Assembly: GCA_965203355.1 (NCBI GenBank)
Contig: OZ241889.1
Location: 3,328,001-3,392,000 of the forward strand
Direction: 5' to 3'
Length of the DNA: 64,000 bases
DNA from: Candidatus Latescibacterota bacterium
Lineage (GTDB): Bacteria > Latescibacterota > UBA2968 > UBA8231
A program made the translations under genes and the position numbers. Positions within the stretch are counted from its first letter, which is position 1. Each line of letters starts with the position of its first letter. Below the pieces are notes generated by a model. The model saw nothing but the letters and a program-made list of their open reading frames with translations. It did not search any database and was not told the DNA's origin. Of this stretch, positions 24,328-59,323 are shown piece after piece.

Positions 24328-26322
24328 CTACCTCGGCCGCGCAACGCCCCCGGCCAAATACCAAGTCTCTGGATAGTACGGCCACGTCCACCGCGAATCC
24401 CAACCCCAATAGCCCTGGAGCGGCACGTTCCGCAGCGTGCGGCTGACCACGACCGGATGCGGTCCTAGGCCAATGACGCCAAGGGCCCACAGGTTGTCGG
24501 CCTGGCTGCGGAGAATCTTCTTGCCCATCGCAATGCGCTCCTTTTCGTCCGTAGTGCGGCGCAAGGTCTCCCACCAGCCGATCAGCTCCTTGATCGGCGC
24601 GGGCGGCTCCCACCCGAGCGCACCATCGGAAAGGTACCACCGCGTCCACTTGGACCACTGACTCTGCTCCCAGCCGCCATTGGTCGGCACGTACCAATAA
24701 GGCTCAATGGGAAAGAGAATATCCGCGTTGCGGTCCGCGTGCCAGATGGTCATGTCCATCAAGCCCGCCCTAGCGCGGATCCGTTGCAGCGTGCCGCTAA
24801 TCTGTTTGAGATGGACGCTTATCCCTACCTCGCGCCAGTGCGCCGCGACCAAGTCCAAGGTAACCTGCTTGGGCGTCTCGCCGATCATGTACTCCAAGGT
24901 GATTTGCAATGGCTCGCCATCGAGCCGCTCGCGCCGGCCATCTCCGTCGCGATCGACAAGCCCCATCTCGTCGAACAGAGCCTGGGCCCACGCCGGATCA
25001 AACTCCGCCCACGCCGCGGCAAATTCCGGCTCGAAGTAGCGGCTCGAAGGCACCACCGTCAACTGGCGCGGCACCCCATAACCGAAATAAACGATGTCGT
25101 TAATTTCCGCTCGATTGATGGCCAGCGACATCGCCCGGCGGAAGCGCACGTCCGCAAAAATCTGCCGCAGTCCTTCGTCGGGATGGTTCAAATTGAACTG
25201 CAACACCACGTCCGAGCCGTACGGCCGCGGCCAGACATACGTGGAATAGCCGTTGTGCGGCTCAAAGCGCTTAAACAGCGGAATATCGGCCGTCATAAAC
25301 TGCCGCCCGGCAAAGTCGACCTGTCCGGTCGAGGCTTTGGCGGCCATAATCTCGGGGCTATCGACCCGCTGCACCTCCAGATAGTCGATATAGGGCAGTT
25401 GGTTGCCTTGGGGATCCACCTTGAAATAGTACGGGTTGCGGCGCAACCGGGCGCGCGTCGAAGTCCGGCTGGTCAATACGTAGGCCGTCAGCACCGGGCG
25501 GTTGAAGTGAATCAGATCGGTCGTGCTGTTCACCGCTCCGAAATAGGTGAGCCAGTCCTGCAAACCCAACGCGGCGGCTTCGCGCTCCAATTGCGCGGGA
25601 TCGGTAAAGGCCGGGTGGTAGCGGCGCATGAAGTGCGCTGGCATCACCAAGCGCGCACTATTGTGGGCGAGGTGATTGACAAACAGCGGCATGGGCTGGG
25701 GAAAGTGATAACTGAAGCTATGCGCGTCGTGCTTTTCGATGCGCGCGCCCTTGAACCGCGGCTCCACTACCGGCGTGAGTTCCTCGTTCATCAGCACGTG
25801 GTCGAACCAGAATACATAGTCGTCGGCCGTCACGGGATGGCCGTCGGACCACTTGTGGCCGGGACGCAGGGTGATCCGCAAGGTGCGCGCGCCGTTGCGG
25901 TATTCGGCCTTGGCCGCAAAATTCGGCAGGTTCAACCGCATTTGTGGCCCCGGACGCAGCACGCCTTCGGGCACGTTGATCAGGCTTTCACCCGCAAAAA
26001 ACAGCCGGGCCGTCCCCCCGTAGCGGCCAATTTCGCCGTAGGGTTCGACCACCACCGGGTCGTCGGGCAGGCGCTCGGCAACCGGCGGCAAGGCCCCGGA
26101 CGCCACCCATTCATCGAGCACGGGCGATTGGCGGAAGGTCTGCAATCCCACAACCGCCGCCGTGGCCGGTGGCCGGAACCAAGACGCTGGCCACGCGCTC
26201 GGCGGAATGTCGCCCGTCGGCACGGCGGACGGCACGCCCGAGTGCTCGGTTTCGACCGGCGCACAGCCCAACCACGCGGCCGCACCTACGCGCCACACCA
26301 TCCTGCAATTCAGCACTGACAC
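24328..26322 (-). CDS. ABC transporter substrate-binding protein, family 5
   Basis: LPPVAERLP, IGRYGGT, LRPGHKWSDGHPVTADD, RNPYYFKVDPQGNQLPYID, FRRAMSLAINR; no permease genes adjacent. Confidence 0.92.
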   Translation of the reverse strand: MSVLNCRMVWRVGAAAWLGCAPVETEHSGVPSAVPTGDIPPSAWPASWFRPPATAAVVGLQTFRQSPVLDEWVASGALPPVAERLPDDPVVVEPYGEIGRYGGTARLFFAGESLINVPEGVLRPGPQMRLNLPNFAAKAEYRNGARTLRITLRPGHKWSDGHPVTADDYVFWFDHVLMNEELTPVVEPRFKGARIEKHDAHSFSYHFPQPMPLFVNHLAHNSARLVMPAHFMRRYHPAFTDPAQLEREAAALGLQDWLTYFGAVNSTTDLIHFNRPVLTAYVLTSRTSTRARLRRNPYYFKVDPQGNQLPYIDYLEVQRVDSPEIMAAKASTGQVDFAGRQFMTADIPLFKRFEPHNGYSTYVWPRPYGSDVVLQFNLNHPDEGLRQIFADVRFRRAMSLAINRAEINDIVYFGYGVPRQLTVVPSSRYFEPEFAAAWAEFDPAWAQALFDEMGLVDRDGDGRRERLDGEPLQITLEYMIGETPKQVTLDLVAAHWREVGISVHLKQISGTLQRIRARAGLMDMTIWHADRNADILFPIEPYWYVPTNGGWEQSQWSKWTRWYLSDGALGWEPPAPIKELIGWWETLRRTTDEKERIAMGKKILRSQADNLWALGVIGLGPHPVVVSRTLRNVPLQGYWGWDSRWTWPYYPETWYLAGGVARPR

Positions 26323-34293: not shown

Positions 34294-34737
34294 TCAGAGC
34301 TTGATGACGGCGACGAGGACGCCGGTAATGGTCACTAACGTGCCCATCATCCACAGGAAATAGGTGTCCATGCGCTTGTGGACGGCGCGAATCTGCTCGC
34401 TCAAGTCGCGGTTGGTCTCGTCGATGCGCTTATTGGTTTCGTCGATGCGGTTGCCCAAGTCGCGGCTGGTCTCTTTGATGCTATCGTTCAATAAGCGGTT
34501 GGTCTCGTCGATGCGGTTGCCCAAGTCGCGGTTGGTCTCTTTGATGGCATCATTCAATAAGCAGTTGGTCTCGTCGATGCGGTTGTGGACGATTCCTATT
34601 TCGGTGCGTAGGGCTTGGATGTCGTCGTGCGATTGGGTGCGTAGGGCTTGGATGTCGTCGTGCAGATAGCTAATACTCCAAGGCATTTCTTCGGGGGCGG
34701 GGATCGCACGAGGTTGCGGGTCGACGCTTTTGCTCAT
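34294..34737 (-). CDS. Coiled-coil repeat protein with C-terminal TM anchor (DUF1640/CCDC90-like)
   Basis: AGGAG SD; repeats HDDIQALRT x2 and RIDETN x4; hydrophobic C-terminus. Confidence 0.75.
   Translation of the reverse strand: MSKSVDPQPRAIPAPEEMPWSISYLHDDIQALRTQSHDDIQALRTEIGIVHNRIDETNCLLNDAIKETNRDLGNRIDETNRLLNDSIKETSRDLGNRIDETNKRIDETNRDLSEQIRAVHKRMDTYFLWMMGTLVTITGVLVAVIKL
34405..34662. repeat. Intragenic tandem repeats (33-bp and 66-bp periods)
   Basis: GGTCTCGTCGATGCGGTTG-type units recur at 66-bp spacing; GTGCGTAGGGCTTGGATGTCGTCGTGC twice at 33-bp spacing. Confidence 0.8.
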
Positions 34738-36096: not shown

Positions 36097-38040
36097 ATGC
36101 CCGGTAATTTTACCTATCGCTCGTTCGCCGTGGGCGCGTTGCTCTCGCTGGCGATCAACATGTTCTTCGCCTACGCCCGGCTGGCGATGGCCACCGCGGG
36201 CATGTCCTCGGATTACATCACCGCCGGCGCGGTTTTCCTGTTTTTCCTGGTGGTGGCTTTTATCAATCCCGCGCTCAAGCTAATGCGCCGTTCTTGGGGC
36301 TTTAATCGCTCCGAATTGATCGTCATTTACGCGATGATGATCATCGGCTCGGCGATTCCTACGTGGGGATTTACGGGCAATTTGATCGCCATGTTGCCCA
36401 ACATTTACTACTATGCTACGCCCGAAAACAACTGGTCGGAATTGTTGCATCCTTATGTCCGCGAGTGGATGGTGCCGCAGGATCCAGACGCGATCAAGTA
36501 TTTCTTCGAGGGCTTGCCCAAAGGGCAACCCATTCCTTGGGAACACTGGATGGTGCCGCTGGCGGCTTGGGTCTCGTTCATTTTGGCGATCTACTTGATG
36601 ATGATTTCCATTGCGTCGATCGTCCGCCGCCAATGGGTTGACTACGACCGCTTGACCTTTCCGCTGTTGCAGTTACCTATCGACTTGACCGAAGAAGGCC
36701 AGCGCGGGGCCATCATCGGGCCGCTGTTCAAAAAGCCGCTTTTGTGGATCGGGTTTGCGCTGCCTTTTGTGCTACACAGTACCAACGCCCTAAACCACTA
36801 TTTTCCCTTTATCCCAGCGGTGCAGTTGCGCCACAACATCTCGCTGTTTAACAACGCGCTGGGGCTGACGACGAATGTGAACTTCGCGGCGCTGGGGCTG
36901 GCGTACTTTTTGAGCTTAGACGTGGGGTTGAGCATTTGGCTTTTCCACTTGTTGACCAAAGCGCAGATCACCACTGAGAATGTCCTCGGCTATTCACTGC
37001 CCGGCCGCCGCGATCTGTTTATGGAAGGCTCGATGTCGGTGTCCTACGAGGGGATGGGGGCCATGCTGGTGCTGGTGCTCTACGGGCTGTGGAACAGCCG
37101 CGGCTATCTGCGACGGGTCTGGCGCAAGGCGCTGTACAACGAGGGCGGGCTAGACGATTCGCAGGAGATACTCTCGTATCGGGCGGCGCTCATCATCTTG
37201 GTTTTGGCCAGCGCGTACGCTACCGTCTGGCTGACCTTATCGGGCATACCGTGGTGGGTGGCGCTGTTTTTTCTTTTTGTCGCCTTTTGCATCTTCTACG
37301 GATTGACGCGCATTGTCGCCGAGGGTGGGTTGGGTTTTGCGCGGGCGCAGATGACGGCGCAGCCGTTTGTGATTGATGCCGTGGGCACGGAGGCGATTGG
37401 GCCGTCCGGGTTGGTGAGTTTGGGGATGACCTTTAGCTGGGCGGGCGACCTGCGGACTATGGTGATGGCCTCGGCGATCAACGGGCTCAAGCTGGCCGAT
37501 GTGGGCCAAGTGCGCGGGCGACCGCTGTTTTGGGCGTTGATGCTCTCGATTGTGGTCGGCTTGGCTGGCTCGATCTGGATGGTGGTGTGGATGGGCTACC
37601 AGTACGGGGGAATCAATTTAGACTGGTGGTTCTACAATCGCTTCGGCGAGATCATCCACGGCGACTCGGCCTACAAGATCGCCAATCCAAGGCACCCCTT
37701 AAACGACTTTGGCGAGATCGGGCCGCGCTTCATGTTCGCGGGCATTGGCGCGGCGCTCATGGGGCTGTTGATGTACGCCCGGCACCACTTTCTCTGGTGG
37801 CCGGTACACTACCTCGGCTTCCCCATCGGCGCGACCCTGACGATCATCTGGACGTGGTTTGGGATTTTCATCGGCTGGGTTCTCAAGGCCCTAGTGCTCA
37901 AATACGGCGGCGTGACGCTCTACCGGCAGCTACGGCCTTTGTTTTTAGGGTTGATTTTAGGACACATTTTTGTCTCGGGATTCTGGGTGTTCTTCGACTA
38001 TGTCACCGGGGAGACCGGCAATCGAATTCCGATTTTTTGA
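36097..38040 (+). CDS. DUF6785/DUF6784-type polytopic membrane protein (copy 2)
   Basis: FNRSELIVIY, YYATPENNW, QW..DRLTFPL, WWPVHYLG, LKYGG..PLFLGLILG. Confidence 0.8.
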   Translation: MPGNFTYRSFAVGALLSLAINMFFAYARLAMATAGMSSDYITAGAVFLFFLVVAFINPALKLMRRSWGFNRSELIVIYAMMIIGSAIPTWGFTGNLIAMLPNIYYYATPENNWSELLHPYVREWMVPQDPDAIKYFFEGLPKGQPIPWEHWMVPLAAWVSFILAIYLMMISIASIVRRQWVDYDRLTFPLLQLPIDLTEEGQRGAIIGPLFKKPLLWIGFALPFVLHSTNALNHYFPFIPAVQLRHNISLFNNALGLTTNVNFAALGLAYFLSLDVGLSIWLFHLLTKAQITTENVLGYSLPGRRDLFMEGSMSVSYEGMGAMLVLVLYGLWNSRGYLRRVWRKALYNEGGLDDSQEILSYRAALIILVLASAYATVWLTLSGIPWWVALFFLFVAFCIFYGLTRIVAEGGLGFARAQMTAQPFVIDAVGTEAIGPSGLVSLGMTFSWAGDLRTMVMASAINGLKLADVGQVRGRPLFWALMLSIVVGLAGSIWMVVWMGYQYGGINLDWWFYNRFGEIIHGDSAYKIANPRHPLNDFGEIGPRFMFAGIGAALMGLLMYARHHFLWWPVHYLGFPIGATLTIIWTWFGIFIGWVLKALVLKYGGVTLYRQLRPLFLGLILGHIFVSGFWVFFDYVTGETGNRIPIF

Positions 38041-48236: not shown

Positions 48237-49942
48237 TTAGACCCTGTGGCCGTGTTGCCCTCGCATGTAAAAGGTGCCGTTTGGGTTCATGCCGGGGAAT
48301 CTCCACGTGCCGGGGTTGATGGGCCAAGGTAGAACATCGGCGCGATCTGCCCATTCGCGGTAGCCCTGTTCCATTTCCCGAACCCGGTCTTTTTCTCGCT
48401 CTGCTAAGTTGTCGAGTTCGGTGCGATCTTCTTCCATGTTGTAGAGTTCCCAGTCGCCTGGGCCGCTGGTTTCGCAGACTAGTTTCCACGGCCCGCGGCG
48501 GATGGCGGCATTGCCCTCGTGTTCCCAGTACATAGGCTTTTCGCGCGACCATTCGCGGCCTTTGAGGAGCGCGAGGAAGCTCTCGCCTTCGAGGGGCGTA
48601 ATGGCGTGGCTGTCGTATTCGGCGGGATAGGATGCGTCGGCCGCGTCGATGAGGGTGGCGGTGATGTCGATGATCTGGGCCGGGGTGTGCGTCAAGTCGG
48701 GTTGTTTGATGGTGGCTGGCCAACGGACAATACAGGGGGTGGCGATGCCGCCTTCGTGGACCCAGCGCTTGTAGCATGACTGCTTCAAATGCTTTAACTT
48801 TCACCCTGACCGGTGGCGATGCCGCCTTCGTGGACCCAGCGCTTGTAGCGGCGGAAAGGGGTGGTGCTGACATTGGCCCAAGGCACGTCATAGCTCATGT
48901 ACGTATCCGCGGCGCCGGGCATCAGGCCGGGGATGTTGCCCATTTGCACGGGTCGCCCGTCGTGCGTCGTCAAGCCCGGCAAAAAGACCCAGTCAATGCG
49001 GTTGCCGTCCTCGCACAAGAATTCAGCGCAGCCGCCGTTGTCCGAGAGGAAAACGACTATGGTGTTATGCTCCACGTTGAGTTCGCGGAGTTTGGCGAGG
49101 ATGCGACCGATGCCTTGGTCCATGCGATCGACTTGCGCTGCGTACACGGCCATGCGCCGGTCTTCCCAGTCTGGGTCGGCCACTTCATGCCAAGGAGGGG
49201 CGTCCGCATCGCGGGGCGATATGTCCCAGTGGGCGCTGACGATTTCTAGGGCTTTGAGCGTTTCGTGTCGAGCGGTGCGGGCTGCGTCCCAGCCGCCTTT
49301 GCGGTACTGGCCTTGGTAGCGGGCGATGTCCTCTTCAAAGGCGTGGAGCGGCCAGTGCGGTGCTGTGTACGCAACGTACATGAAGAAGGGCTGGTCGGTG
49401 CTTTCGGCGATGAAGTCAACGGCGTGGTCGGCGATGGCGTCGGTGAGGTAGAAGTCGGTGGGGTCGGCGTCGATAGGTTGGCCGTCGAGGGTGCAGGTGC
49501 GCCCGCCAAAGTAGCCGCTGTTGGCGCCGAGGCCAAACAGGCGGTCGAAGCCGTGCTGCATCTCGGGGGGGATGTCGGTGCTGGCGGGTCTTTTGCCGCA
49601 GTGCCACTTGCCCGACATTAGCGTGCGATAGCCGCGCTCCTTGAGCACTTGGGCGATGGAGACGGCCGAGTGGCGCAGGTAGCCGCCATAACCGGGGGCG
49701 TTGGGGATGCCGCCGGCCATGTGGCCGATGCCGGCTTGGTGTGGATAGAGACCGGTCAGCAGGGCCGCGCGCGAAGGGCAGCACCGGGCGAAATTGTACA
49801 TCTGCGAGAAGCGCAGCCCCTCGGCGGCGAGGCGGTCTAGGTTGGGGGTGCGGATTTCTGAGCCGTAGCAGCCGAGGTCGGAATAGCCCATGTCGTCGGC
49901 GAGGATGAGGACGATGTTGGGACGCTGGGACGCGGTGGTCAT
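48237..49942 (-). pseudogene. Arylsulfatase disrupted by a 74-bp insertion
   Basis: RPNIVLILADDMG, CCPSRAALLTG, SGKWH, FLSDNGG, WELYNM; removing 74 bp at 48776-48849 restores one 543-aa frame. Confidence 0.92.
48738..48849. repeat. 38-bp exact direct repeat flanking a 36-bp unique insert (repeat-spacer-repeat)
   Basis: GGTGGCGATGCCGCCTTCGTGGACCCAGCGCTTGTAGC at 48738-48775 and 48812-48849; insert ATGACTGCTTCAAATGCTTTAACTTTCACCCTGACC. Confidence 0.95.
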
Positions 49943-50022
49943 GGCGGAACTCCTGCTGGGCAAGTTGGGAATTCAGAATTGCGAATTAAATTAACAATTT
50001 TTAAAAAGAAAGAAGATGTTTT

Positions 50023-50958
50023 ATGGCTATAAAGCATGGATTGACCGCCGAGGAACGCGCAAAGTATGCACAAGACGGGTTCTTTATTCGCTCAGCTGCC
50101 TTTGATGCTTGTGAGATGGATGCACTGCGCGACAGCATCGAAGCACTCGTAGAACTCATCGAGACTGCTGACGTGTTGACGGAAAAACAAAAGCAAATAA
50201 TTCTGAAGCGCAATGTCAGAACCGAGGTGCCCTCTGGGCCTGCGTCCTTAAACAGTATATGGCGACTTCACACGTTCAGCGCATTGGTGCGATCGCACAT
50301 TCGCGACCCAAGGCGACTGGATGCGGTTGCCGAGATCGTCGGGCGCGATTTGTTCTGTCCAAACGATCTGTATTTTTTCAAACCCCCGGGCACCGGGCGG
50401 CCTATTGCGTGGCATCAGGACTCGTGGTATTTCCGCAATACGTATGTCAGTAGCATCGGCGACGCTATAGACCAATCGACGATTGGAACTTGGCTGGCGC
50501 TCGATGGTGCAGATGAAGAAAACGGATGCTTGTGGGTGATCCCCGGCAGTCACCGCTTGGGCGTGATAGATCACCGTCAGGTCGAGAGCGATGATTATCT
50601 ATTGCAAAAAAGAGTGACCGTGGCCGACGAGATGGAAGAACAGGCCATACCGGTAGCCGTGCCAAAGGGTGCCTTGGTGTTTTTTAACAATGCGCTATTG
50701 CACCGCAGTACACCCAATAGATCCGATCGGTTTCGGCGGGCTTATATCGTGCATTACATGAAGGCGACTATCCAACATGCTGGGAACAGACAAAGGATTC
50801 CCGAAGGCGCGGAGCATTGGGGCACACCTGAGATGTACATCTGCGGACGGCAATTGCCCGGGTGCGTACAAACAACGCTTGAGAAAGACAGCATGGATTG
50901 GGACAAAGCGTTGGAACGGACCTTGACAGAAGATGACATTAGGGTTTCGGAGCCGTAG
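50023..50958 (+). CDS. Phytanoyl-CoA dioxygenase (PhyH) family protein
   Basis: FFKPPG..AWHQDSWY, WLALD..ENGCLWVIPGSH, LLHRSTPNRS. Confidence 0.92.
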   Translation: MAIKHGLTAEERAKYAQDGFFIRSAAFDACEMDALRDSIEALVELIETADVLTEKQKQIILKRNVRTEVPSGPASLNSIWRLHTFSALVRSHIRDPRRLDAVAEIVGRDLFCPNDLYFFKPPGTGRPIAWHQDSWYFRNTYVSSIGDAIDQSTIGTWLALDGADEENGCLWVIPGSHRLGVIDHRQVESDDYLLQKRVTVADEMEEQAIPVAVPKGALVFFNNALLHRSTPNRSDRFRRAYIVHYMKATIQHAGNRQRIPEGAEHWGTPEMYICGRQLPGCVQTTLEKDSMDWDKALERTLTEDDIRVSEP

Positions 50959-50969
50959 CAGCCGAAGCC

Positions 50970-51230
50970 GAGGGAGTCCAGCTTTTTGATTTGGCAACAG
51001 ATCCCAGCGAGACCCGAGATGTATCGGAGGACCCGGCATACGCTTCAGTGGTAGCCGACATGAAAGCCCGGCTGCGGGCGGAACGCGAAAAAGCGGGCCT
51101 GACAGACGAAATAGAACGACAGATTTTTAATAGCGGAAACGTAACACACACGCGCAAACAGATGAATGCATTGCTGGCGATGGTACATGCCAATACCGCC
51201 GAGAACCAGCCCGCTTCTCGTCGGGGTTGA
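50970..51230 (+). pseudogene. Orphan C-terminal remnant of a sulfatase
   Basis: EGVQLFDLATDPSETRDVSEDPAYASVVADMKARL, typical sulfatase tail, without N-terminal part. Confidence 0.65.
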
Positions 51231-51307
51231 TAGGCTAGAACACAGAAGCCGGTGCGACATTTCCTTTCACCGTATATGTTCAGCCGTTTGTCTAACGAGG
51301 AGACGAT

Positions 51308-53124
51308 ATGTACGAGCAATTAGCAATACACTACGAAGGGCAGACCGAATTCGTCGCCACCGATCAGCAACCCAAACCCTTGCGGCTATTTGTCACTTGT
51401 CCGGCGGGCTTGGAAGCGGGTGCCGACGTGCGCGTTTCGATCAGTTCGTTTCATTCCTATTCTCGCCAGTGGACGCTTGCAGATCCTTTTGTCGAAGGAG
51501 GGGAGGGCGTGGTGGTGTTGGGGCACGGGTTGGCACGCGACTGGACCGACATGACGCGGGGCGGCGATGGGCCGGCTGGTGGTGGATTGGTGGGAAGGCC
51601 GATCAACGAACTCTACTTGTGTACCATTCAAGTTACCAAATCGCTGGGCGCGGGCGCGCGGCTGGTCTTTCCCTTTGGCGTGGTGCCGTCGCCGCACGCG
51701 GATATAAGCGGGGCCCTGCAAGTGCGAGTGCGACGACCTGAAGCCGAGGTTTTCGAGAAAGTGGGCGATCCCATGCCGCTGAGTAATGCGCCCGGTCCTC
51801 TGACGCGGCTGGAAGGGCGAGTCTCGGCTACGGCGGATGCACAGGGAAAGCGTCGGGCCGTAGTCTTTGCGACGGACGATCATCTCAATCCAATACCCGG
51901 CTACCGGGGGCGGTAACTCTACAGGCCGATGGCTCGGTCGCCGGGCTACCCGCCGAAGTGGAGATTGGCGCTGATGGGCGGGGCGTGGTGGAGGGCATGG
52001 CCGTGCAGGCCGAGGGCCCCGTCCGCATCACCGTGCGCGATGTGGAGCGCGGTTTAGCCGCGCAGAGCGGTCCGGCGCGTGTAGTCGGCGTGCGCGGGCA
52101 CTACTTCGGCGGCATCCACTTTCACACGCGGCTTTCGGTGGATGGCGATCGAGAGCCGCGTGCGGCCTACGCCTATGCCCGCGACTTTCTCAACCTCGAC
52201 GTGATCGCGATGACCGACCACGCGCCCATTGGCCCGGGATGGGCCGAGTGCTTGGCGGTCAATGAGGAATTTTACGAGCCGGGTCGCTTTGTGACGATCC
52301 CGGCGTGGGAAAGCTCCAATGCCTACGGGCACGCCAACCTCTATTTGCGGACGCCCGCAGTCGATGGCGGCACTTGGCACTGGCAACCGGATCTGTGCCC
52401 CTCGGAAGTGGTTTGGGACGCGGACGTGGTCATGGTGCCGCATCACCCCAACTGCGGCCAGCCCATCGAGTACGGCAAGCACCGCGCGGTCATGGGCAAG
52501 ACGTTTTACTGGTCGCAATACCACTGGGAATTTCCCAACCAGCGCGCCAGACTGGTGGAAATCGTCCAAGGGCGGGGCAATTTTGAAGCCGACGCCCCGG
52601 ACGAGTACTGGGGTATTCGCCTAGGCGCGTTGGGTGCTTCGGTGCAGGACGCTTTTGCCCAAGGCTGGCGCTTGGGGTTTGTGGCCGGGACCGACAATCA
52701 TCAGGGACACCCAACGCAAAAGCCGGGCGGCTACGTGGGGATGACCTGCTTCCGGGCGACGGAGTTGACCCGCGAGGCCGTGTGGCAGGCGATGGACGAG
52801 CGCTGGACCTACGCGACTTCGGGGGTGCCGATCGTCTGCGATTATACCGTCAATGGGGTGCGCTCGGGCGCGGCGGGTGGGCTGGCAGCCGGTGAAAAGG
52901 TGCATTTTTCCGCTAGCCTACACGGGACGGCGCCGATTGAGCGAGTGGAAATCATGGCCAACGGGCGGTGCGTCTGGCACGACGCGCCCAATGCTTGGGA
53001 CGTGGAAATCGACGGAGCCGAGTTGCCCGCACCCGAGGGCGCGTGGGCCTATTACTATCTGCGGCTGCGGCAACAGGATGGGCACCGGGCGTGGCTGAGT
53101 CCGGTGTGGTTGGATCGAGGATGA
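51308..53124 (+). pseudogene. DUF3604/PHP-like metallohydrolase split by a single-base frameshift
   Basis: GIHFHT..DG, MTDH, PHH, GTDNH..HP, AWLSPVW; G5 at 51906-51910, one extra G would fuse both ORFs (YRGAVTLQADG). Confidence 0.78.
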
Positions 53125-53153
53125 ACCGAGGATGCGCTTGGAGCGGTGAGCGG

Positions 53154-55052
53154 TTAGAAATAGTAAAATGAATAGACCAAAGACGAGCCCCCCACGCCGA
53201 CGCAAGCTCCCATGATAAACCCCAAAAAGAGCGGCCGCATCTTTCGGTAGAGCACGACCCCTCCGTAGCTGATCAGAACCGATTTAACAAGCCAAGCGAG
53301 GAACATCCCAAACCAATCGCCGCGCACGGTATTGGTCAGGGCTACGGCCAGCCCCACCGGATGCAGTGGCCAGCCGGCCAGGCGATGCTGGGCGAAGGAA
53401 AGCAGTCCGGCGAGTCCCGCGCCAATGCCAGTAAATAGGGTGGTCAGGTGTTGCGGCGGGTGCGGGTTATTGACCGTTTTGGCGACCCAACCCCACTTGC
53501 TCAGCGGCGAGTTGATGTAGTACCAGCGGAAGCCGTGCATCATACCGTGCTGATAGCCTAGCCATATATAGACCACGATGGTGGTGACCGCGCTGACCAC
53601 GAGGGCGGAGGCGAGGAAGAACAGCAGCTTGCGGGCACTGATCTTTTCCTTGACTTCCTCGCAGACCTTGAAGGCGTGGGCCATCGTGCCCATGAAGAAC
53701 AGTTGCACGTCCGCGGCCCAGACCATGTTGAGCCCCATAGCGGTGAGTCCCTTATCGCCGAAATAAGCCGTGCCGAAGATGTTGGTAAAAAGCGGCGGGA
53801 TGGAATGGGGCGCGCGCAGCCGCCCCAAGCCGGTTTGCACCAGCAAGCGCGCGGTGCCCAAAAATACCAACAGCGCGACCAGCAAAAAGGCCAAGCTCCA
53901 GCCGAGGGAGAGTCCAGTGGCGTGAAGGAAGTACGCCATATAGCCCAAGCCGCCCACTCCCATAAGCGCCGAGATGCGCGGCGAGGGCAGGTGTGAGTCC
54001 GGGCCTTTTGCGCCGCTGGCGATAGCGTGCCACTGGTTTTTGAGAAAGTCGCGCGAAATCCACAGCGACGAGAGGATCAAAAAGATGAGGGCTCCCATCT
54101 GCTGATGCGACATCAGCACGGAGACCTGCTGGTGCGGCTGGGCCGGGAGGTTGACGACAACGCCTAAAAAGCCCAACAGGCCGTGTTCGAGATAGACGAG
54201 GATGTGAAAGAGCCAGACGCTCAAGAGCACATTGAGGTTGAGCAGATAGCCTAGGCCGACGACGAGGAAGTTGACGTTGAGCCCATAGGAGATACCGAGG
54301 CGGCGCAAAAAAATGCGCGTGGACGGGATGCCGAAGTTGTCAATGGTCTCAAAGTCGAACACTTGGTCGAGCATGTTGACGGTCGGGATGAGCGCGGCGA
54401 TGAAAAAACCGACCCAGAACAGCGGATTCCGAAAGAGGCTTTTAGCTGGATTTTCCACGCTCTCGACCATCGCCGTTGGCACTACGGCCAAGGGATAGAC
54501 CAAGCGCTCGCGGCTGGCCCACTGGTGATGGAGCAGGGCGATGAGCGAGAAACTGATCAAGAAGAAGGCGACCATGAACAGGCCCCAGAAGACAGCCGGG
54601 CCGAGCCAAGCGTCCCACGGCAGCGGCGCCCCGGCGGGCGCTCCCTCGAAGAGGTTGCGAATCATCGCTAGGTCGCGTGGAGCGGCCCAGTCGGGAATGT
54701 AGTCCCAGAGCAGTTCGCGCCAGTTGTTTTCCGGGGTGGCGTAGTAGAAGACGCCAGCGAGCAGGGGAATAAAATAACCGCCAAAGCCCATAGTCGGCAT
54801 GACTGTGGCCACCATCAGCGCGGCGTAGATGAGGGCAAAAGTCGAAGTCGGCAGCCGCAGGAAGGGCCGAATCAGCGCGAGCAGGAGGGCGGTAAGCGCG
54901 ACCCAGAACAGGGCGAAGATAACGCCAACGGTGTTGAAGTGGTCGGCGTAGCCCGAGTAGTGGTCGAGCAGGATGTAGCTGCGCACCCCAATGAAGTTGT
55001 GGCCGACGCACAGCGCCATGGCCAGCGTCCATTCGAGGGCCGAGCGCATCAC
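53154..55052 (-). CDS. DUF6785/DUF6784-type polytopic membrane protein (copy 3)
   Basis: YYATPENNW, QW..ERLVYPL, GWPLHPVG, SYGG..PLFLGFIMG. Confidence 0.8.
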   Translation of the reverse strand: MMRSALEWTLAMALCVGHNFIGVRSYILLDHYSGYADHFNTVGVIFALFWVALTALLLALIRPFLRLPTSTFALIYAALMVATVMPTMGFGGYFIPLLAGVFYYATPENNWRELLWDYIPDWAAPRDLAMIRNLFEGAPAGAPLPWDAWLGPAVFWGLFMVAFFLISFSLIALLHHQWASRERLVYPLAVVPTAMVESVENPAKSLFRNPLFWVGFFIAALIPTVNMLDQVFDFETIDNFGIPSTRIFLRRLGISYGLNVNFLVVGLGYLLNLNVLLSVWLFHILVYLEHGLLGFLGVVVNLPAQPHQQVSVLMSHQQMGALIFLILSSLWISRDFLKNQWHAIASGAKGPDSHLPSPRISALMGVGGLGYMAYFLHATGLSLGWSLAFLLVALLVFLGTARLLVQTGLGRLRAPHSIPPLFTNIFGTAYFGDKGLTAMGLNMVWAADVQLFFMGTMAHAFKVCEEVKEKISARKLLFFLASALVVSAVTTIVVYIWLGYQHGMMHGFRWYYINSPLSKWGWVAKTVNNPHPPQHLTTLFTGIGAGLAGLLSFAQHRLAGWPLHPVGLAVALTNTVRGDWFGMFLAWLVKSVLISYGGVVLYRKMRPLFLGFIMGACVGVGGSSLVYSFYYF

Positions 55053-55267
55053 TTGCTTCCCTGCCGCCCGGCCTCCCAGTCGTCGATCAACGCACGGAAG
55101 TTGTCCAAGCCGATAAAACGGGGGTCCTTGGTCCAGCCAGACCAGTCGGTCAGGCCGTAGGCAAACCCGAGCAGGGTCGGTAGAGCGAAAAAGGCTAGGT
55201 AGAGGAATACGGCGGGGCCGCAGAGCAGGACGGAGGCCGTGGATTTTTCGCTGAAAGCTCGCTGCAT
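55049..55267 (-). pseudogene. N-terminal remnant of a carbohydrate ABC permease
   Basis: PAVFLYLAFFALP..YGLTDWSG..FIGLDNFRAL then ends after about 12 residues. Confidence 0.7.
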
Positions 55268-55427
55268 GGCGCAGGTGTAGTAACCAAAGGGGCCGCGGAT
55301 GTCAAGCGGCGGCCGGGCCTTTTCGACTCGGCGGCGCTCGGCCTGACAGGCTATATGCGCGAAGTACTGACGCGGTACCGCAGGCACAATGCGGCCGGGG
55401 AGCGTCGAGGAGCAAAAAAGCCCGAGC

Positions 55428-56255
55428 TCACATCTGGAAGCCGCCGGCTACTACCAGCGATACGCCGGTGAGGTACTCCGCTTCTGCTGAAGCGAGGAAG
55501 GCCACGGTGCGGGCTACATCTTCGGGTGTGCCGATGCGGCCCAAGGGGGTTTGCGCTGCTAGGTCGTGGACTAGGGCCGCCGTGGTGTCGGCGTCTGGCT
55601 CGCGGCGTTGGGCGAGGCCCGCGGCGATATAGTGGGTGCGCTCGGTGAGGGTGTTGCCCGGGCAGACCGCGTTGACGTTGATCCGGTGAGGGGCAAGCTC
55701 GCCAGCGAGGGATTGGGTAAAGCCGATGATGGCGAATTTGGACGTGCAGTACGCGGCGTAGCGCGGCAGCCCTTGGCGGCCGGCCGTAGAGGCCATGTTG
55801 ATGATTTTGCCGCCATCGCCGCGGTCGATCAGGTGCCGGGCCACGGCGCGCGAGCAGAGAAAGGTGCCCTTGACGTTGACGGTTTGCACCTGATCCCAGG
55901 CGGCTTCGCTTAGATCGACGACCGGGACGCGATCCGGGCCGGGGCGCGAGCCCGCGTTGTTGACTAGCAGGTCGATGCGGCCAAAGCGCGCGAGCGCGGC
56001 TTGCACCATGCCCTCGACTTGGGCGGCGTCGGACACGTCGGCTTCTACCGCGAGGGCCTGCCGACCGGCGGCTTCGCTTTCGGCGACGAGAGCGGACAGG
56101 CCGCCCCAGCCCGTCTCGCTATAGGGCCGAGCGCGCAAGTCGTTGACCACGAGGTCGCAGCCTTCGCGCGCCAAGCGCTGGCAGATGGCGCGGCCAATGC
56201 CGTGTTCGCCGCCCGCGCCAGTGACGAGGGCGACTTTGCCGTTGAGATTGTACAT
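55428..56255 (-). CDS. SDR family oxidoreductase
   Basis: GKVALVTGAG..GIG, LVNNAG, YCTSKF, VNAVCPG. Confidence 0.95.
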   Translation of the reverse strand: MYNLNGKVALVTGAGGEHGIGRAICQRLAREGCDLVVNDLRARPYSETGWGGLSALVAESEAAGRQALAVEADVSDAAQVEGMVQAALARFGRIDLLVNNAGSRPGPDRVPVVDLSEAAWDQVQTVNVKGTFLCSRAVARHLIDRGDGGKIINMASTAGRQGLPRYAAYCTSKFAIIGFTQSLAGELAPHRINVNAVCPGNTLTERTHYIAAGLAQRREPDADTTAALVHDLAAQTPLGRIGTPEDVARTVAFLASAEAEYLTGVSLVVAGGFQM

Positions 56256-56390
56256 GGGTTTCTCCGCATGATTAAGGAGTTGAGGGGCGGCGTGTAAAAC
56301 GCCAAGTAGTGCTTGCGTGCGTCCGTCAACAGAGCAAAGCGGTGGCGGGCTGGTTTGTCGTTCATTGGAGCCGGGAATTCCACCAAGAAC

Positions 56391-57758
56391 CTATTCGAGA
56401 CGCCGATTTTCTCCTGTAATTGCAATGGGAAACCACAGGAGTTGCAGGGCATCTTGTCGCACCTCGACGGAGAGGTCGCCCGGCGGTTCCGCGGTTTCAA
56501 TTGAGTACGAGCGGTGCAGGACCTTGGCTGGAGTCAATGAGGTAGTGTCTCGAACGGCCACTTTGCCATCCACCGACACTTCGATGACGACATTGGGCAT
56601 CTCGAGCGCGGGCGAAAGGGCGATGTTCAGCAACCCATCGTCTAAACTGCCGCGGACCGCGCCGACCTGCGAAGCCGCACTCATCCCCTTCGTTCCCCAG
56701 TAGCTATACATCCACTCCGTCCACGCGAGCGAGGCTCCGGGTGGGAGTGGCTGCGTCTCATCGGGAAAAAGTACCGACGTGCCACCCCACATCTCGACAT
56801 AGCCCTTGTTGGGCTGGCCGGAGCCCATGGGAATCCCGGTCGGATGGAAGCCGTAGGTCCATACATCGACCCCTGGGTTGAGGACGGGATCGAAGACGCG
56901 GACCACGCCCTCCTCAGCGTCGTGGGAGTAGGCGCTGTAATAGCCGGCCGTCAATCCGTCGGCCATGATATCGCCGGCCTTCCACCCTCGGATGTAGCGC
57001 AACGGGTTCTCGCTCCAGACCTGTGGACTCGGCCCTAGGTTTTTTTGCCAGCGGTCGGCGATCCGGATGCTCTTTGTGGGGATGATGAACTCGGTGTTGT
57101 CGGTCAGCTCGTTCTCACCGCCAGGAGTCCACATGGGATTGACCCAGTGGGCGAACTGAACGGTGTCGGCTCTTGGATTGTGAAGGCGGATCTGGGCCTC
57201 CAGTGCGGCTGAGCCTTGATGGACAGTCAGTCTGACTCGCTGGGTCAATCCTGTCAGCGGCTCCGTCGTTGCCATCGACATAGAAACCCGTTCTGGGTGA
57301 TCTTCCAAGATCTCCCACGTCCAGGGCAGCGCGAAGGTCGTGCCGTGTTCGTAGCCCGGAAGTGTGTACTCGATCCCGCCGATCCAGAGCCACCAGCCAG
57401 TGGGATTGTTTGCCCCGCCGGGGCGCACAATGTCGTTTTTCCACAGCGCGTCGTGGCTGGTCCGCTTGTCAATGAGGGAGTACACTCGTCCCATCTCCGG
57501 CAGCACCTCTACGCGCACATAGTCGGATTCGAGCACCACGCGCCTATGCTGCTTGTCGACGATGCGCGTCCAGTCGATGCGCTCGAAATTTAGATGGGGA
57601 AGTGGGTCGCCTTCGTCGTAGTAAATCGCCGGCTCGTAATCGACTTGAGGGATGTCGATGTGGTCGACGACAATGGATGTGGCGGCGCTTGGGGAAATTG
57701 CCGACAGGGCCAGAATCAGGGAGAGTACGAGCGGAAGAACTCGGCGTCGAGTCATCAT
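56391..57758 (-). CDS. Secreted DUF5107-like (galactose mutarotase-like) protein
   Basis: Signal peptide; VVLESDYVRVEVLPEMGRVYSLIDK, GGIE, YVEMWGG. Confidence 0.7.
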   Translation of the reverse strand: MMTRRRVLPLVLSLILALSAISPSAATSIVVDHIDIPQVDYEPAIYYDEGDPLPHLNFERIDWTRIVDKQHRRVVLESDYVRVEVLPEMGRVYSLIDKRTSHDALWKNDIVRPGGANNPTGWWLWIGGIEYTLPGYEHGTTFALPWTWEILEDHPERVSMSMATTEPLTGLTQRVRLTVHQGSAALEAQIRLHNPRADTVQFAHWVNPMWTPGGENELTDNTEFIIPTKSIRIADRWQKNLGPSPQVWSENPLRYIRGWKAGDIMADGLTAGYYSAYSHDAEEGVVRVFDPVLNPGVDVWTYGFHPTGIPMGSGQPNKGYVEMWGGTSVLFPDETQPLPPGASLAWTEWMYSYWGTKGMSAASQVGAVRGSLDDGLLNIALSPALEMPNVVIEVSVDGKVAVRDTTSLTPAKVLHRSYSIETAEPPGDLSVEVRQDALQLLWFPIAITGENRRLE

Positions 57759-59323
57759 TTCATCCTATGGCTATTCATCGCTGGTGTAGAGGACGGCCAG
57801 GTCTTGTTGCTGAATTTTGCGATGGCTTGGGCTGCCGCTGCCGAGTCGCCTGCCTGCCGGTACGCGAGCACGAGCCCCCGCTGTGCCGATGGCTGATCGG
57901 GATCTTGGGCTAGCGCTTGTTCGTATCGTTCGGCTGCGGTATGGGCATCGCCTTGTTGCAACTCGAGGTTTCCCAGCGCAATGAAAACATCGGCTGAATT
58001 CTCGGACAACTCCAGCGCCCGTTCGTACGCCTCTCGACTTAGGTCGATGTAGCCGCTAGTGGCATAGGCCGTGCCTAGGTTGTACCACGCCAAGCCATAG
58101 TCTGGCTTGAGATTCAGGGCTTGGCGGTACGCCGAAATCGCCTCGCTCGGGCGACCTAGTCGGATGTGGGCATTGCCGAGGTTCTGCCAGGCGCGGGCGT
58201 TGTCCGGCTGGAGCGACAAACCGTCGCGCAGGTGTCTAACGGCTCCCGCGTCGTGCCCGAGGCGAACGTAGAGGCGGGCGAGTTTGAAGTGTGTACTGGG
58301 ATTACGGCCCGGCTGGGCTAGCGTGCGCAGGTTCTCGATCTCAGCTATGTGCGGCTCAATTCGCCGATGGGTGGTGTGCTGTTCCTCGGCGTCCCGACTA
58401 CGACCTAGCTGGCGGTACGCGGAAGCCAACTGAAGACGAACATCGGGATGCACTGGGTCGAGTTCGAGAGCCTTCTCAAGAGCCGCGGCCGCTTCGACAT
58501 GCTTTTCCAACCGGGCTTGGGATATTCCCAGACCGATGTGCGCCTCCACTGAAGCGGGGTCGAGATTGACTGCTGTCGAAAATGCTTTGAGGGCCTGGTG
58601 GGCTCGTCCTACTTGTAGGAGGGCGCGGCCTACGGCTACCTCGTATCTGACGCTGTCTGGTGCCAAGGCGATGGCTCGCTGGAGGAGGTCCAAACTTTCC
58701 GCACAGCGACTTAGGTGTTCGCACTGGAGAGAACCCAAGGCGAAGATCGCCTCGTGAGACGTGGGCTCCAATTCCACCGCTTGCTCCAGCGAGGTATGGG
58801 CTGCCGCTACATCCCCCCGAGCCACCTGCACTACACCCATCAGCTTGTGCAGCGTTGAGCGGGCCGAATCGAGCGCGATGGCTTCGGCGAGTGCGAAGTG
58901 GGCGTTGTCGAGTTGTCCGACCCCGAGCCACGCCACCGATAGGCTCTCTAACGTCTCGGCATTGCGCTTGACCGCGACCGCGCGCTGCGCTAGGGCGAGT
59001 GCCGTGGTGTGATCGCGGATTCGGGCCAGAACCTCGCTGAGACCCATCAGGGCCCCCACGTGCAGACTATCCGACCGCAGCACCCCTTGGAACTGATCCA
59101 TTGACTGATCCACGTGCCCCAAGTCGAACAGTACGCGGGCAAGCGACGTCCGGGTCTCGGTATCTGTGGGGTGTTCGCGCAGTTGTTCTTCATACGTCAG
59201 CCGCAACCGTCCCAATTCGTCCGCTGTGGGCGGCGCGTCCGCAGCAGGGCGTTGGCTTTCGCACCCGACGAGCACCCCGATCAGGGCTAGGAACCACGCT
59301 TGTACTCTCACCGGGGCGTCCAT
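57755..59323 (-). CDS. TPR repeat lipoprotein
   Basis: LVGC lipobox-like, about a dozen TPR units (AWQNLGNAH, AWYNLGTAY). Confidence 0.88.
   Translation of the reverse strand: MDAPVRVQAWFLALIGVLVGCESQRPAADAPPTADELGRLRLTYEEQLREHPTDTETRTSLARVLFDLGHVDQSMDQFQGVLRSDSLHVGALMGLSEVLARIRDHTTALALAQRAVAVKRNAETLESLSVAWLGVGQLDNAHFALAEAIALDSARSTLHKLMGVVQVARGDVAAAHTSLEQAVELEPTSHEAIFALGSLQCEHLSRCAESLDLLQRAIALAPDSVRYEVAVGRALLQVGRAHQALKAFSTAVNLDPASVEAHIGLGISQARLEKHVEAAAALEKALELDPVHPDVRLQLASAYRQLGRSRDAEEQHTTHRRIEPHIAEIENLRTLAQPGRNPSTHFKLARLYVRLGHDAGAVRHLRDGLSLQPDNARAWQNLGNAHIRLGRPSEAISAYRQALNLKPDYGLAWYNLGTAYATSGYIDLSREAYERALELSENSADVFIALGNLELQQGDAHTAAERYEQALAQDPDQPSAQRGLVLAYRQAGDSAAAAQAIAKFSNKTWPSSTPAMNSHRMK

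Follow-up and report, generated by a model that had tools for sequence, protein, structure and literature searches.

A repeat-spacer-repeat unit that splits a sulfatase gene in a sponge-associated Latescibacterota bacterium probably reflects off-target integration by Cas1-Cas2

In a 64-kb stretch of the genome of an uncultured, sponge-associated Latescibacterota bacterium (contig OZ241889.1, positions 3,328,001 to 3,392,000; hereafter the window, numbered from its first nucleotide), a gene of the arylsulfatase family on the minus strand (48237..49963) is interrupted by 74 nucleotides (nt), which comprise a second copy of 38 nt of its own coding sequence and an insert of 36 nt that resembles neither flank. 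An initial annotation, made from the sequence alone, had taken this arrangement for an ectopic spacer acquisition, and had called for comparisons with reads, with orthologues and with possible sources of the insert, together with a scan for further units of the same build. Spacer acquisition is also the reading best supported by the present analysis, in that the insertion is derived, its dimensions match those of the CRISPR arrays found in the family, and three sister scars occur in relatives. We estimate a probability of roughly 0.7 that the unit represents an off-target, full-site integration of a single prespacer into the sulfatase gene by the CRISPR adaptation integrase Cas1-Cas2.

Recomputation of the coordinates, identity and G+C content reproduced the annotated structure, an exact 38-bp duplication surrounding a 36-bp insert. 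The two copies (GGTGGC...GTAGC) are 100% identical and occupy positions 48738-48775 and 48812-48849, separated by the insert at 48776-48811 (15/36, or 41.7%, G+C), such that one copy and the insert together define a period of 74 nt. Because the outer neighbours of the copies are unequal on both sides (G versus C before, A versus G after), 38 nt represents the maximal duplication. The borders carry the uncertainty of 1-2 bp for which the annotation had allowed: if one or two bases at the ends of the insert equal target bases, the real stagger measures 36-38 nt and the insert likewise 36-38 nt. The whole unit consists of two copies and one spacer-sized insert, and the sequence that has been duplicated is coding. 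Read on the minus strand, the gene-upstream copy (48812..48849) encodes (R)YKRWVHEGGIAT, followed by GQGES and a stop read from the insert. The insert itself, to which no strand is assigned, carries both the in-frame TAA that ends the N-terminal open reading frame (ORF) of the interrupted gene and the TTG that opens its C-terminal ORF, and the gene-downstream copy (48738..48775, minus strand) lies in the sulfatase frame and is read by the C-terminal ORF.

Within the window, this is the sole exact direct repeat of at least 16 nt at a spacing of 40-130, apart from one coding tandem repeat, and with up to three mismatches allowed the 36-mer insert finds one match, which is itself (0 expected). 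A G+C content of 15/36 or lower occurs in 4.0% of all 36-mers of the window. In the sulfatase gene without the insert, the lowest value for any 36-mer is 44.4% and the mean is 63.4%, in keeping with the annotated contrast in composition between insert and gene. Since the insert is unlike both flanks, the unit is not a diverged tandem duplication. No inverted repeats are present in window 48400-49200, and the combination of terminal inverted repeats with multiple copies that characterizes an insertion sequence (IS) or a miniature inverted-repeat transposable element (MITE) is absent. Elsewhere in the window, a 66-nt tandem repeat that is probably coding occupies 34402-34585 (2.3 copies, with 93% identity over 34433-34585).

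The two pieces of the interrupted gene are readily recognized by their Pfam domains. The N-terminal ORF (48794..49963, minus strand; 389 aa) contains the Sulfatase domain PF00884 (E 2e-57), the C-terminal ORF (48237..48788, minus strand; 183 aa), which begins at the TTG inside the insert, contains SGSH_C (E 1e-14), and YKRWVHEGGIAT is encoded by both. Deletion of one copy together with the insert (74 nt) yields an open frame of 550 codons from a TTG at 49963, or 543 codons from the first ATG, in agreement with the 543-aa ORF that the initial annotation had restored by the same removal; with one copy alone deleted (38 nt), the sulfatase frame stays closed. The gene is split by the +2 frameshift that the insertion introduces and by the in-frame TAA of the insert. 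The catalytic sulfatase domain region is retained in the N-terminal ORF, from which the C-terminal domain has been lost, and translation of the C-terminal ORF would require its own initiation at the TTG of the insert. As judged from these frames, the insertion has most likely inactivated the sulfatase gene, with the loss of enzyme function that this would entail. Two paralogous genes bearing DUF6785 and DUF6784 domains (36097-38040, plus strand, and 53154-55052, minus strand) are located among the glycoside hydrolase (GH116), sulfatase and FG-GAP/ASPIC genes of the window.

The window is a single assembled sequence, and the unit could in principle be an artefact of assembly, of a chimera or of library construction. 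An index of public sequencing runs places window sequence in 18 runs from 11 studies, of which four runs (X1, X14, X17 and X18) were compared at the site. Some of the indexed runs contain 0.97 of the window's sampled words, and X2-X13 contain small shares of it. Runs X14, X17 and X18, which belong to three different studies, each provide a 96-nt contig that corresponds to 48746-48841 with 0 differences and spans the complete insert together with 30 nt from each of the two copies. The junctions of the insert, for which read support had been sought, are accordingly found without any difference in contigs from three runs of three studies, one of which is perhaps the source of the window itself. 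In all three runs the adjoining contigs stop and begin within the 38-nt copies, and no single contig covers the whole site because contigs were built from 31-letter words, which are shorter than the 38-nt repeat; bridging requires 31 letters on either side, and the 96-nt contigs extend 30 letters beyond each end of the insert. Since an uninterrupted allele would contribute no distinct words, the data from these three runs cannot reveal its absence. An artefact is nevertheless very improbable, given that the insert and both junctions recur without difference in independent contigs, that an exact staggered duplication resembles neither a collapse nor a chimeric join, and that the insert matches nothing else in the window.

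The fourth run, X1, contains a 1030-nt contig that differs from the window at 28 of 1029 aligned nt (~97% identity) and joins position 48737 directly to 48812, skipping exactly 74 nt. The insertion thus occurs in contigs that were assembled independently, and close strains differ in whether they carry it. Orthologues were sought in one genome per species, which gave 568 confirmed relatives of the N-terminal piece, with the best 80 kept. Among these, 13 orthologues at 90-93% amino-acid identity (by title, 11 metagenome-assembled genomes of Latescibacterota or Latescibacteria and two of Gemmatimonadetes) all possess a single 38-nt copy and a clean 74-nt alignment gap, such that the site is uninterrupted in 13/13 and the insertion is found in 0/13. 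Together with the X1 contig, this distribution indicates that the 74 nt were gained in the lineage of the window and not deleted from the others. The continuing identity of the two copies indicates a recent event, yet the strain carries it in all three of the runs X14, X17 and X18.

The same distribution bears on the suggestion that the interruption is tolerated or programmed, either through ribosomal bypass between the 38-nt copies or because the gene works as two polypeptides. The copies do supply matching take-off and landing sequences 74 nt apart, with a stop located 5 codons past the first copy, the insert provides a TTG at which the C-terminal ORF can begin, and the allele is found in three runs. 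However, the interruption is not conserved, as neither the 13 orthologues nor the 97% strain carries it. In addition, the abundance of sulfatase paralogues in these genomes (568 relatives of the query, and another in locus L173 of a related genome) implies that loss of this gene would be easily tolerated. We therefore regard a programmed or tolerated interruption as highly unlikely.

The reading that we favour depends on a CRISPR adaptation system in the lineage. No cas genes or arrays are located within the 64-kb window. A family of 75 genomes around genome G001 was surveyed, 73 of which match an 8-kb segment of the window (50000-58000). The nearest relative among the matches listed is G046, with 88-94% DNA identity over the listed pieces, which is below species level. 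Cas1 (PF01867) scores above cut-off in 27 of the 75 genomes, and 27 stretches of ~20 kb around cas1 genes contain 25 arrays with a well-defined repeat. Repeat length is 37 nt in 17 of these arrays, 36 nt in 3, 32 nt in 2 and 28 nt in 3, and the repeats end in ATTGAAAC in most cases and in ATTGAAGC in one family. The 1249 native spacers range from 32 to 65 nt, with 36.7% falling at 36-38 nt and 8.9% at exactly 36 nt. Their mean G+C content is 56.5%, and 7.8% of them have values of 41.7% or lower. Periods of repeat plus spacer lie between 71 and 76 nt in 58% of the 1249 units and equal 74 nt in 9.8%. These repeat, spacer and period sizes indicate that the window unit (period 74, with 36-38 nt each for target and insert) has the dimensions of one native unit. 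The lack of an adaptation module with a matching period in the lineage would, according to the annotation, have refuted its reading; Cas1 occurs there in 27 genomes, and 20 of the 25 arrays have repeats of 36-37 nt. In G046, for instance, cas2, cas1, a ring-nuclease-like gene and csm5-csm1 adjoin a 58-repeat array and constitute a type III-A locus. Six of the surveyed loci (L081-L083, L110, L112 and L114) contain Cas1 in open frames of 573-581 aa, approximately twice the usual length, adjoining arrays of the 36-nt ATTTCC...ATTGAAGC repeat; the length of these frames suggests a fusion protein.

Native arrays of the lineage also reveal where some spacers originate. In genome G004, canonical arrays contain spacers with exact or near-exact copies on the chromosome of G004 itself. 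Two of its array spacers match genes of the window, at 25268-25302 (97%) and 57853-57889 (95%), and both of these have exact or 2-mismatch copies on the G004 chromosome and are thus self-derived. The adaptation machinery of the lineage therefore samples host DNA.

In spacer acquisition, Cas1-Cas2 catalyzes two transesterifications on opposite strands, one repeat length apart, and filling of the resulting gaps duplicates the repeat. This chemistry accounts for every feature shown for the unit. At the sulfatase gene, the integrase of the Latescibacterota lineage would have acted at a non-CRISPR site, where the two 3′-OH ends of a prespacer of ~36-38 nt would have attacked opposite strands ~36-38 bp apart. 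Gap repair would then have copied the target between the attack sites onto both sides of the spacer, generating a target-spacer-target unit with a period of 74 nt. We infer both the identity of the enzyme and the prespacer source of the insertion from what is established for Cas1-Cas2. We are aware of no other process by which an unrelated piece of 33-38 bp would come to be enclosed in a duplication of 35-38 bp.

The initial annotation had proposed a scan of the genome for further 30-40-bp duplications around 30-40-bp inserts. Among relatives, three units of the same build were found, in G043, G046 and G048. A first scan for isolated two-copy exact repeats covered 147 loci (1.18 Mb) and returned four isolated units, namely two degenerate CRISPR ends, one 27/27 unit from an unrelated phylum and one unit in G043. 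A second scan covered 400 kb each from the cas1-positive genomes G043, G046 and G048 and from the cas1-negative genomes G003 and G049. Of its 37 isolated repeats of at least 16 nt, eight measure at least 30 nt, and these comprise five diverged tandem repeats (one in G046 and four in G049), one local copy and two units of the scar type.

The G043 scar (L137:15909-16022; G043:C1:5158908-5159021) consists of a 38-nt duplication and a 38-nt insert of 29% G+C, for a period of 76. The unit falls within a type III cas operon, where a 171-aa ORF begins, and an array of 37-nt repeats whose periods are 74-82 lies 7 kb away. The insert provides a new ATG after GGGAG, and the ORF, which originally began MTLVDSL..., now begins MNVDSL.... 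The orthologous site in G054 is empty, with one copy and no insert, and no further copy of the G043 insert was found in the 75 family genomes or in the viral_contigs collection. In G046, the scar (L173:7910-8019; G046:C1:1087910-1088019) combines a 36-nt duplication with a 38-nt insert, for a period of 74, and divides cas3 into two ORFs, one for the HD part and one for the helicase. Next to the scar are cas2 and cas6, and an array with 36-nt repeats and periods of 70-74 is 1.3 kb away. A cas3 frame of 546 codons reopens when 74 nt are removed, and does not when 36 nt are. The insert is unique among the 75 genomes and absent from viral_contigs, and no orthologous DNA was found for an empty-site comparison. 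The locus around this scar, to which L173:5385-6573 also belongs, contains cas6/cmx6, cas3, cas2 and the array with 36-nt repeats, with no cas1 detected, and looks like a decaying type I locus.

The third scar, in G048 (L206:6916-7024), has an apparent 38-nt duplication and 33-nt insert with a period of 71, and is positioned upstream of a gene; one G048 array has periods of 71-73. The orthologous site in G036 is empty. When extended by one base to the left and two to the right, the insert (36 nt) is 100% identical to G048:C1:1179589-1179624 (L268:4990-5025), a sequence 1.17 Mb away. This sequence forms part of a hypothetical gene whose chromosomal surroundings are ordinary, and G047 and G033 contain it as well. 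The existence of this exact donor on the same chromosome indicates that a spacer-sized piece has been copied and pasted. Thus, two of the three scars in relatives (those in G043 and G046) occur inside cas operons beside arrays.

Candidates from these scans were recognized as tandem repeats by homology between the flanks and the sequence separating the copies. Those set aside were a 75-nt coding tandem repeat in G043 (290294; 39/36), a diverged 87-nt repeat in G046 (1166526; 38/49), a tandem duplication in G048 (2027051; 24/30), and, in G049, three 99-nt repeats (233347, 234161 and 239166) and a diverged 79-nt duplication (368625). A further candidate unit in G046 (1052005; 22/39) was not counted as a scar.

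These scars bear directly on the possibility that the units result from template switching, or from a microhomology-mediated error of replication or repair, in which synthesis would leave the target after the 38 nt, copy ~36 nt elsewhere, return to a point 38 nt upstream and copy the target again. Short copy-insertions do occur in the family, as illustrated by a unit in G048 (L207:5231-5345; G048:C1:2365231-2365345) that was rejected as a scar because it contains an in-frame 36-nt second copy of a sequence whose original lies 43 nt upstream. The intervening 43 nt of this unit are native in 3/3 relatives, and the second copy is lacking in G047, G004 and G001. Moreover, the junctions of the G048 scar at L206 share 1 and 2 bases between donor and target, which could represent microhomology. 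Against this explanation, the 36-mer of the window has no template in the 64-kb window or in the 75 related genomes, and the inserts of G043 and G046 each occur only once in the complete chromosome that carries them. Template switching also does not predict four independent events confined to narrow sizes (duplications of 35-38 nt and inserts of 33-38 nt). Two of the four, moreover, are situated within cas operons, next to arrays with a matching period. An origin by template switching therefore appears unlikely.

A somewhat smaller probability attaches to an unknown mobile element, or to another integrase that makes target duplications of 36-38 bp, with the unit representing an excision footprint or the product of a Cas1-like solo integrase. 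Structure alone names no enzyme, and some insertion sequences and casposases make long target duplications. Casposons and IS elements resemble the window unit in that a staggered cut followed by gap repair duplicates the target. Their duplications are typically ~2-15 bp (up to ~28 bp in a few IS groups), and flank kilobase elements with defined ends, whereas the window presents a 38-bp duplication around 36 bp with no element ends. Transposon target duplications are in general much shorter, such as the 14-15 bp of casposons. The four inserts, furthermore, share neither termini nor inverted ends, each is single-copy except for the one that copies an ordinary chromosomal gene, and no transposase or related gene is found at the sulfatase site. 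An insert derived from an IS or MITE end or from a nearby template, which the initial annotation had named as evidence to the contrary, was not seen, the 36-mer being single-copy in the window and absent from 75/75 genomes.

The search for a source of the 36-mer extended to several further collections. No exact copy was found in viral_contigs or metagenome_contigs, and no family genome (0/75) contains one at up to three mismatches. Comparison with phages gave 30 records with partial matches, none covering 80% or more of the query and all with E of at least 1, and comparison with plasmids gave three partial matches (E 4). A 60-nt BLAST query against the 75 family genomes returned nothing that spans the insert, the best match being a 26-nt stretch of 92% identity in a single genome (E 6e-4 per genome), and among the 1249 spacers of relatives the best match is an 11-nt word. 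The source that the annotation had hoped to identify was accordingly not found in viral, metagenome, phage, plasmid or family sequences. As spacers of environmental CRISPR arrays usually remain unmatched, the missing source neither supports nor refutes a spacer origin, and the lack of any template in the window or the family argues against a nearby or conserved chromosomal one.

Does the target itself resemble a CRISPR repeat? The initial annotation had pointed to a repeat-like end, and this claim stands in part. The last 8 nt of the duplicated unit, CTTGTAGC, resemble ATGAAGC-type ends and agree at 6/8 positions with ATTGAAGC, with which true repeats of relatives end; however, 1.2% of random 38-mers from the window reach 6/8. 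A border profile constructed from the first 5 and last 10 positions of 15 distinct 36-37-nt repeats places the register 48739-48775 (plus strand) in the top 0.47% of window 37-mers; when six registers on both strands are corrected for, an equal score is reached at 4.1% of positions. Such border likeness is absent in the three scars of relatives. Over its whole length, the window target reaches at best 17/37 (46%) identity to any relative's repeat. These tests of sequence specificity, made against the repeats of relatives, lend at most weak support to integration at this target.

Several observations weigh against off-target Cas1-Cas2 integration. A whole-length identity of 17/37 is equalled by 12.8% of random 38-mers and is at chance level, and for the three targets in relatives the corresponding likeness to repeats is equalled by 25%, 83% and 44% of random sequences. 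The weak hairpin that the annotation had noted at the start of the duplicated unit did not hold up, since it is no more stable than in shuffled sequences (z 0.17 and -0.32). No protospacer or protospacer-adjacent motif for the 36-mer was found in any collection searched. Cas1 is not detected in 48 of the 75 family genomes, and Cas1-Cas2 and matching arrays are known from relatives, not from the strain of the window. The sample of native arrays contains no 38-nt repeat, in contrast to the 38-nt duplication in 3/4 scars; such scars need either a chance match of an extra base at the junction or a looser ruler at off-target sites. The occurrence of two scars in 1.2 Mb of cas1-positive sequence versus none in 0.8 Mb of cas1-negative sequence points in the expected direction but, with such small numbers, is not significant, and the three scars of relatives are known from assembled sequence. 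Finally, the local copy in G048 at L207 reveals that another process can make isolated 36-nt repeats.

Non-canonical integration by Cas1-Cas2 is reported to have produced neo-CRISPR loci in E. coli in work by Nivala, Shipman and Church (Nature Microbiology 2018; 3:310). Off-target genomic integrations and 'neo-CRISPR' arrays have been described in E. coli with overexpressed Cas1-Cas2 (PMC7054753, PMC11788318, 10.1101/148544, citing Nivala 2018), and one of these sources speaks of circumstantial evidence for natural off-target integration in two other species only (10.1101/148544). The window unit shares with the E. coli events a spacer-sized insert, a repeat-length duplication of a non-CRISPR target, and a chromosomal location outside arrays. 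It differs from them, as described for an overexpressed type I-E system with a 28-nt repeat, in its occurrence in a natural population, its 36-38-nt stagger and its knock-out of a gene. The Cas1-Cas2 of Pyrococcus furiosus has been reported to integrate off target in vitro in pairs separated by one repeat length, with a preferred off-target site just 43% identical to the repeat and with G/C favoured at the borders (PMC6698737). The window target similarly has G as its first base and C as its last, and its identity to the repeats of relatives does not exceed 46% (17/37). In contrast, the P. furiosus reactions used plasmid DNA in vitro and a repeat of 30 nt, and their off-targets are described as sharing positionally conserved bases, whereas the border likeness of the window target is weak (~4%).

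In the type II-A system of Streptococcus thermophilus, a ruler element within the repeat sets the position of the second attack, which moves by 1-2 nt when the element is altered (PMC6895254). By analogy, a ruler shift may explain the apparent 38-nt duplications in a lineage whose native repeats measure 37 nt, although the ruler study concerns a different CRISPR type and engineered repeats, and does not address natural genomic off-targets (PMC6895254). Ectopic spacer uptake has also been reported within the S. thermophilus CRISPR1 and CRISPR3 arrays, at repeats other than the leader-proximal one (PMC7999890, PMC5338259). There, as described, the target is a genuine repeat within an array, unlike the window 'repeat', which is sulfatase coding sequence. 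In a limited search of the literature, no titles or abstracts described natural scars of this kind in coding genes of environmental bacteria.

The unit in the sulfatase gene is thus probably a natural instance of the off-target integration otherwise demonstrated in vitro and in E. coli that overexpresses Cas1-Cas2. To those systems the case adds a natural event with read-level support, an empty-site allele in a 97% strain and a split gene as its cost, as well as sister scars in relatives, of which two lie within cas operons and one can be traced to its donor. Scars of this type can be mis-called as mini-CRISPRs or as sequencing frameshifts, and could mark past integrase activity. The wider pattern of scars across relatives, cas genes included, is the aspect most worth following. 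More tentatively, in sponge-associated Latescibacterota the integrase might be mutagenic, owing to frequent writing of spacers into ordinary chromosomal DNA, striking metabolic genes such as the sulfatase gene as well as cas genes (cas3 in G046 and a gene of the type III operon in G043). Free sampling of the host chromosome by the adaptation machinery would fit the self-derived spacers, which occur both in arrays and at one ectopic site. If this were true, CRISPR adaptation would help to erode its own immune loci, and would leave behind repeat-spacer-repeat units from which new arrays could grow. The finding bears on the cost of CRISPR adaptation to the host, on the decay of cas loci and on the origin of new arrays.

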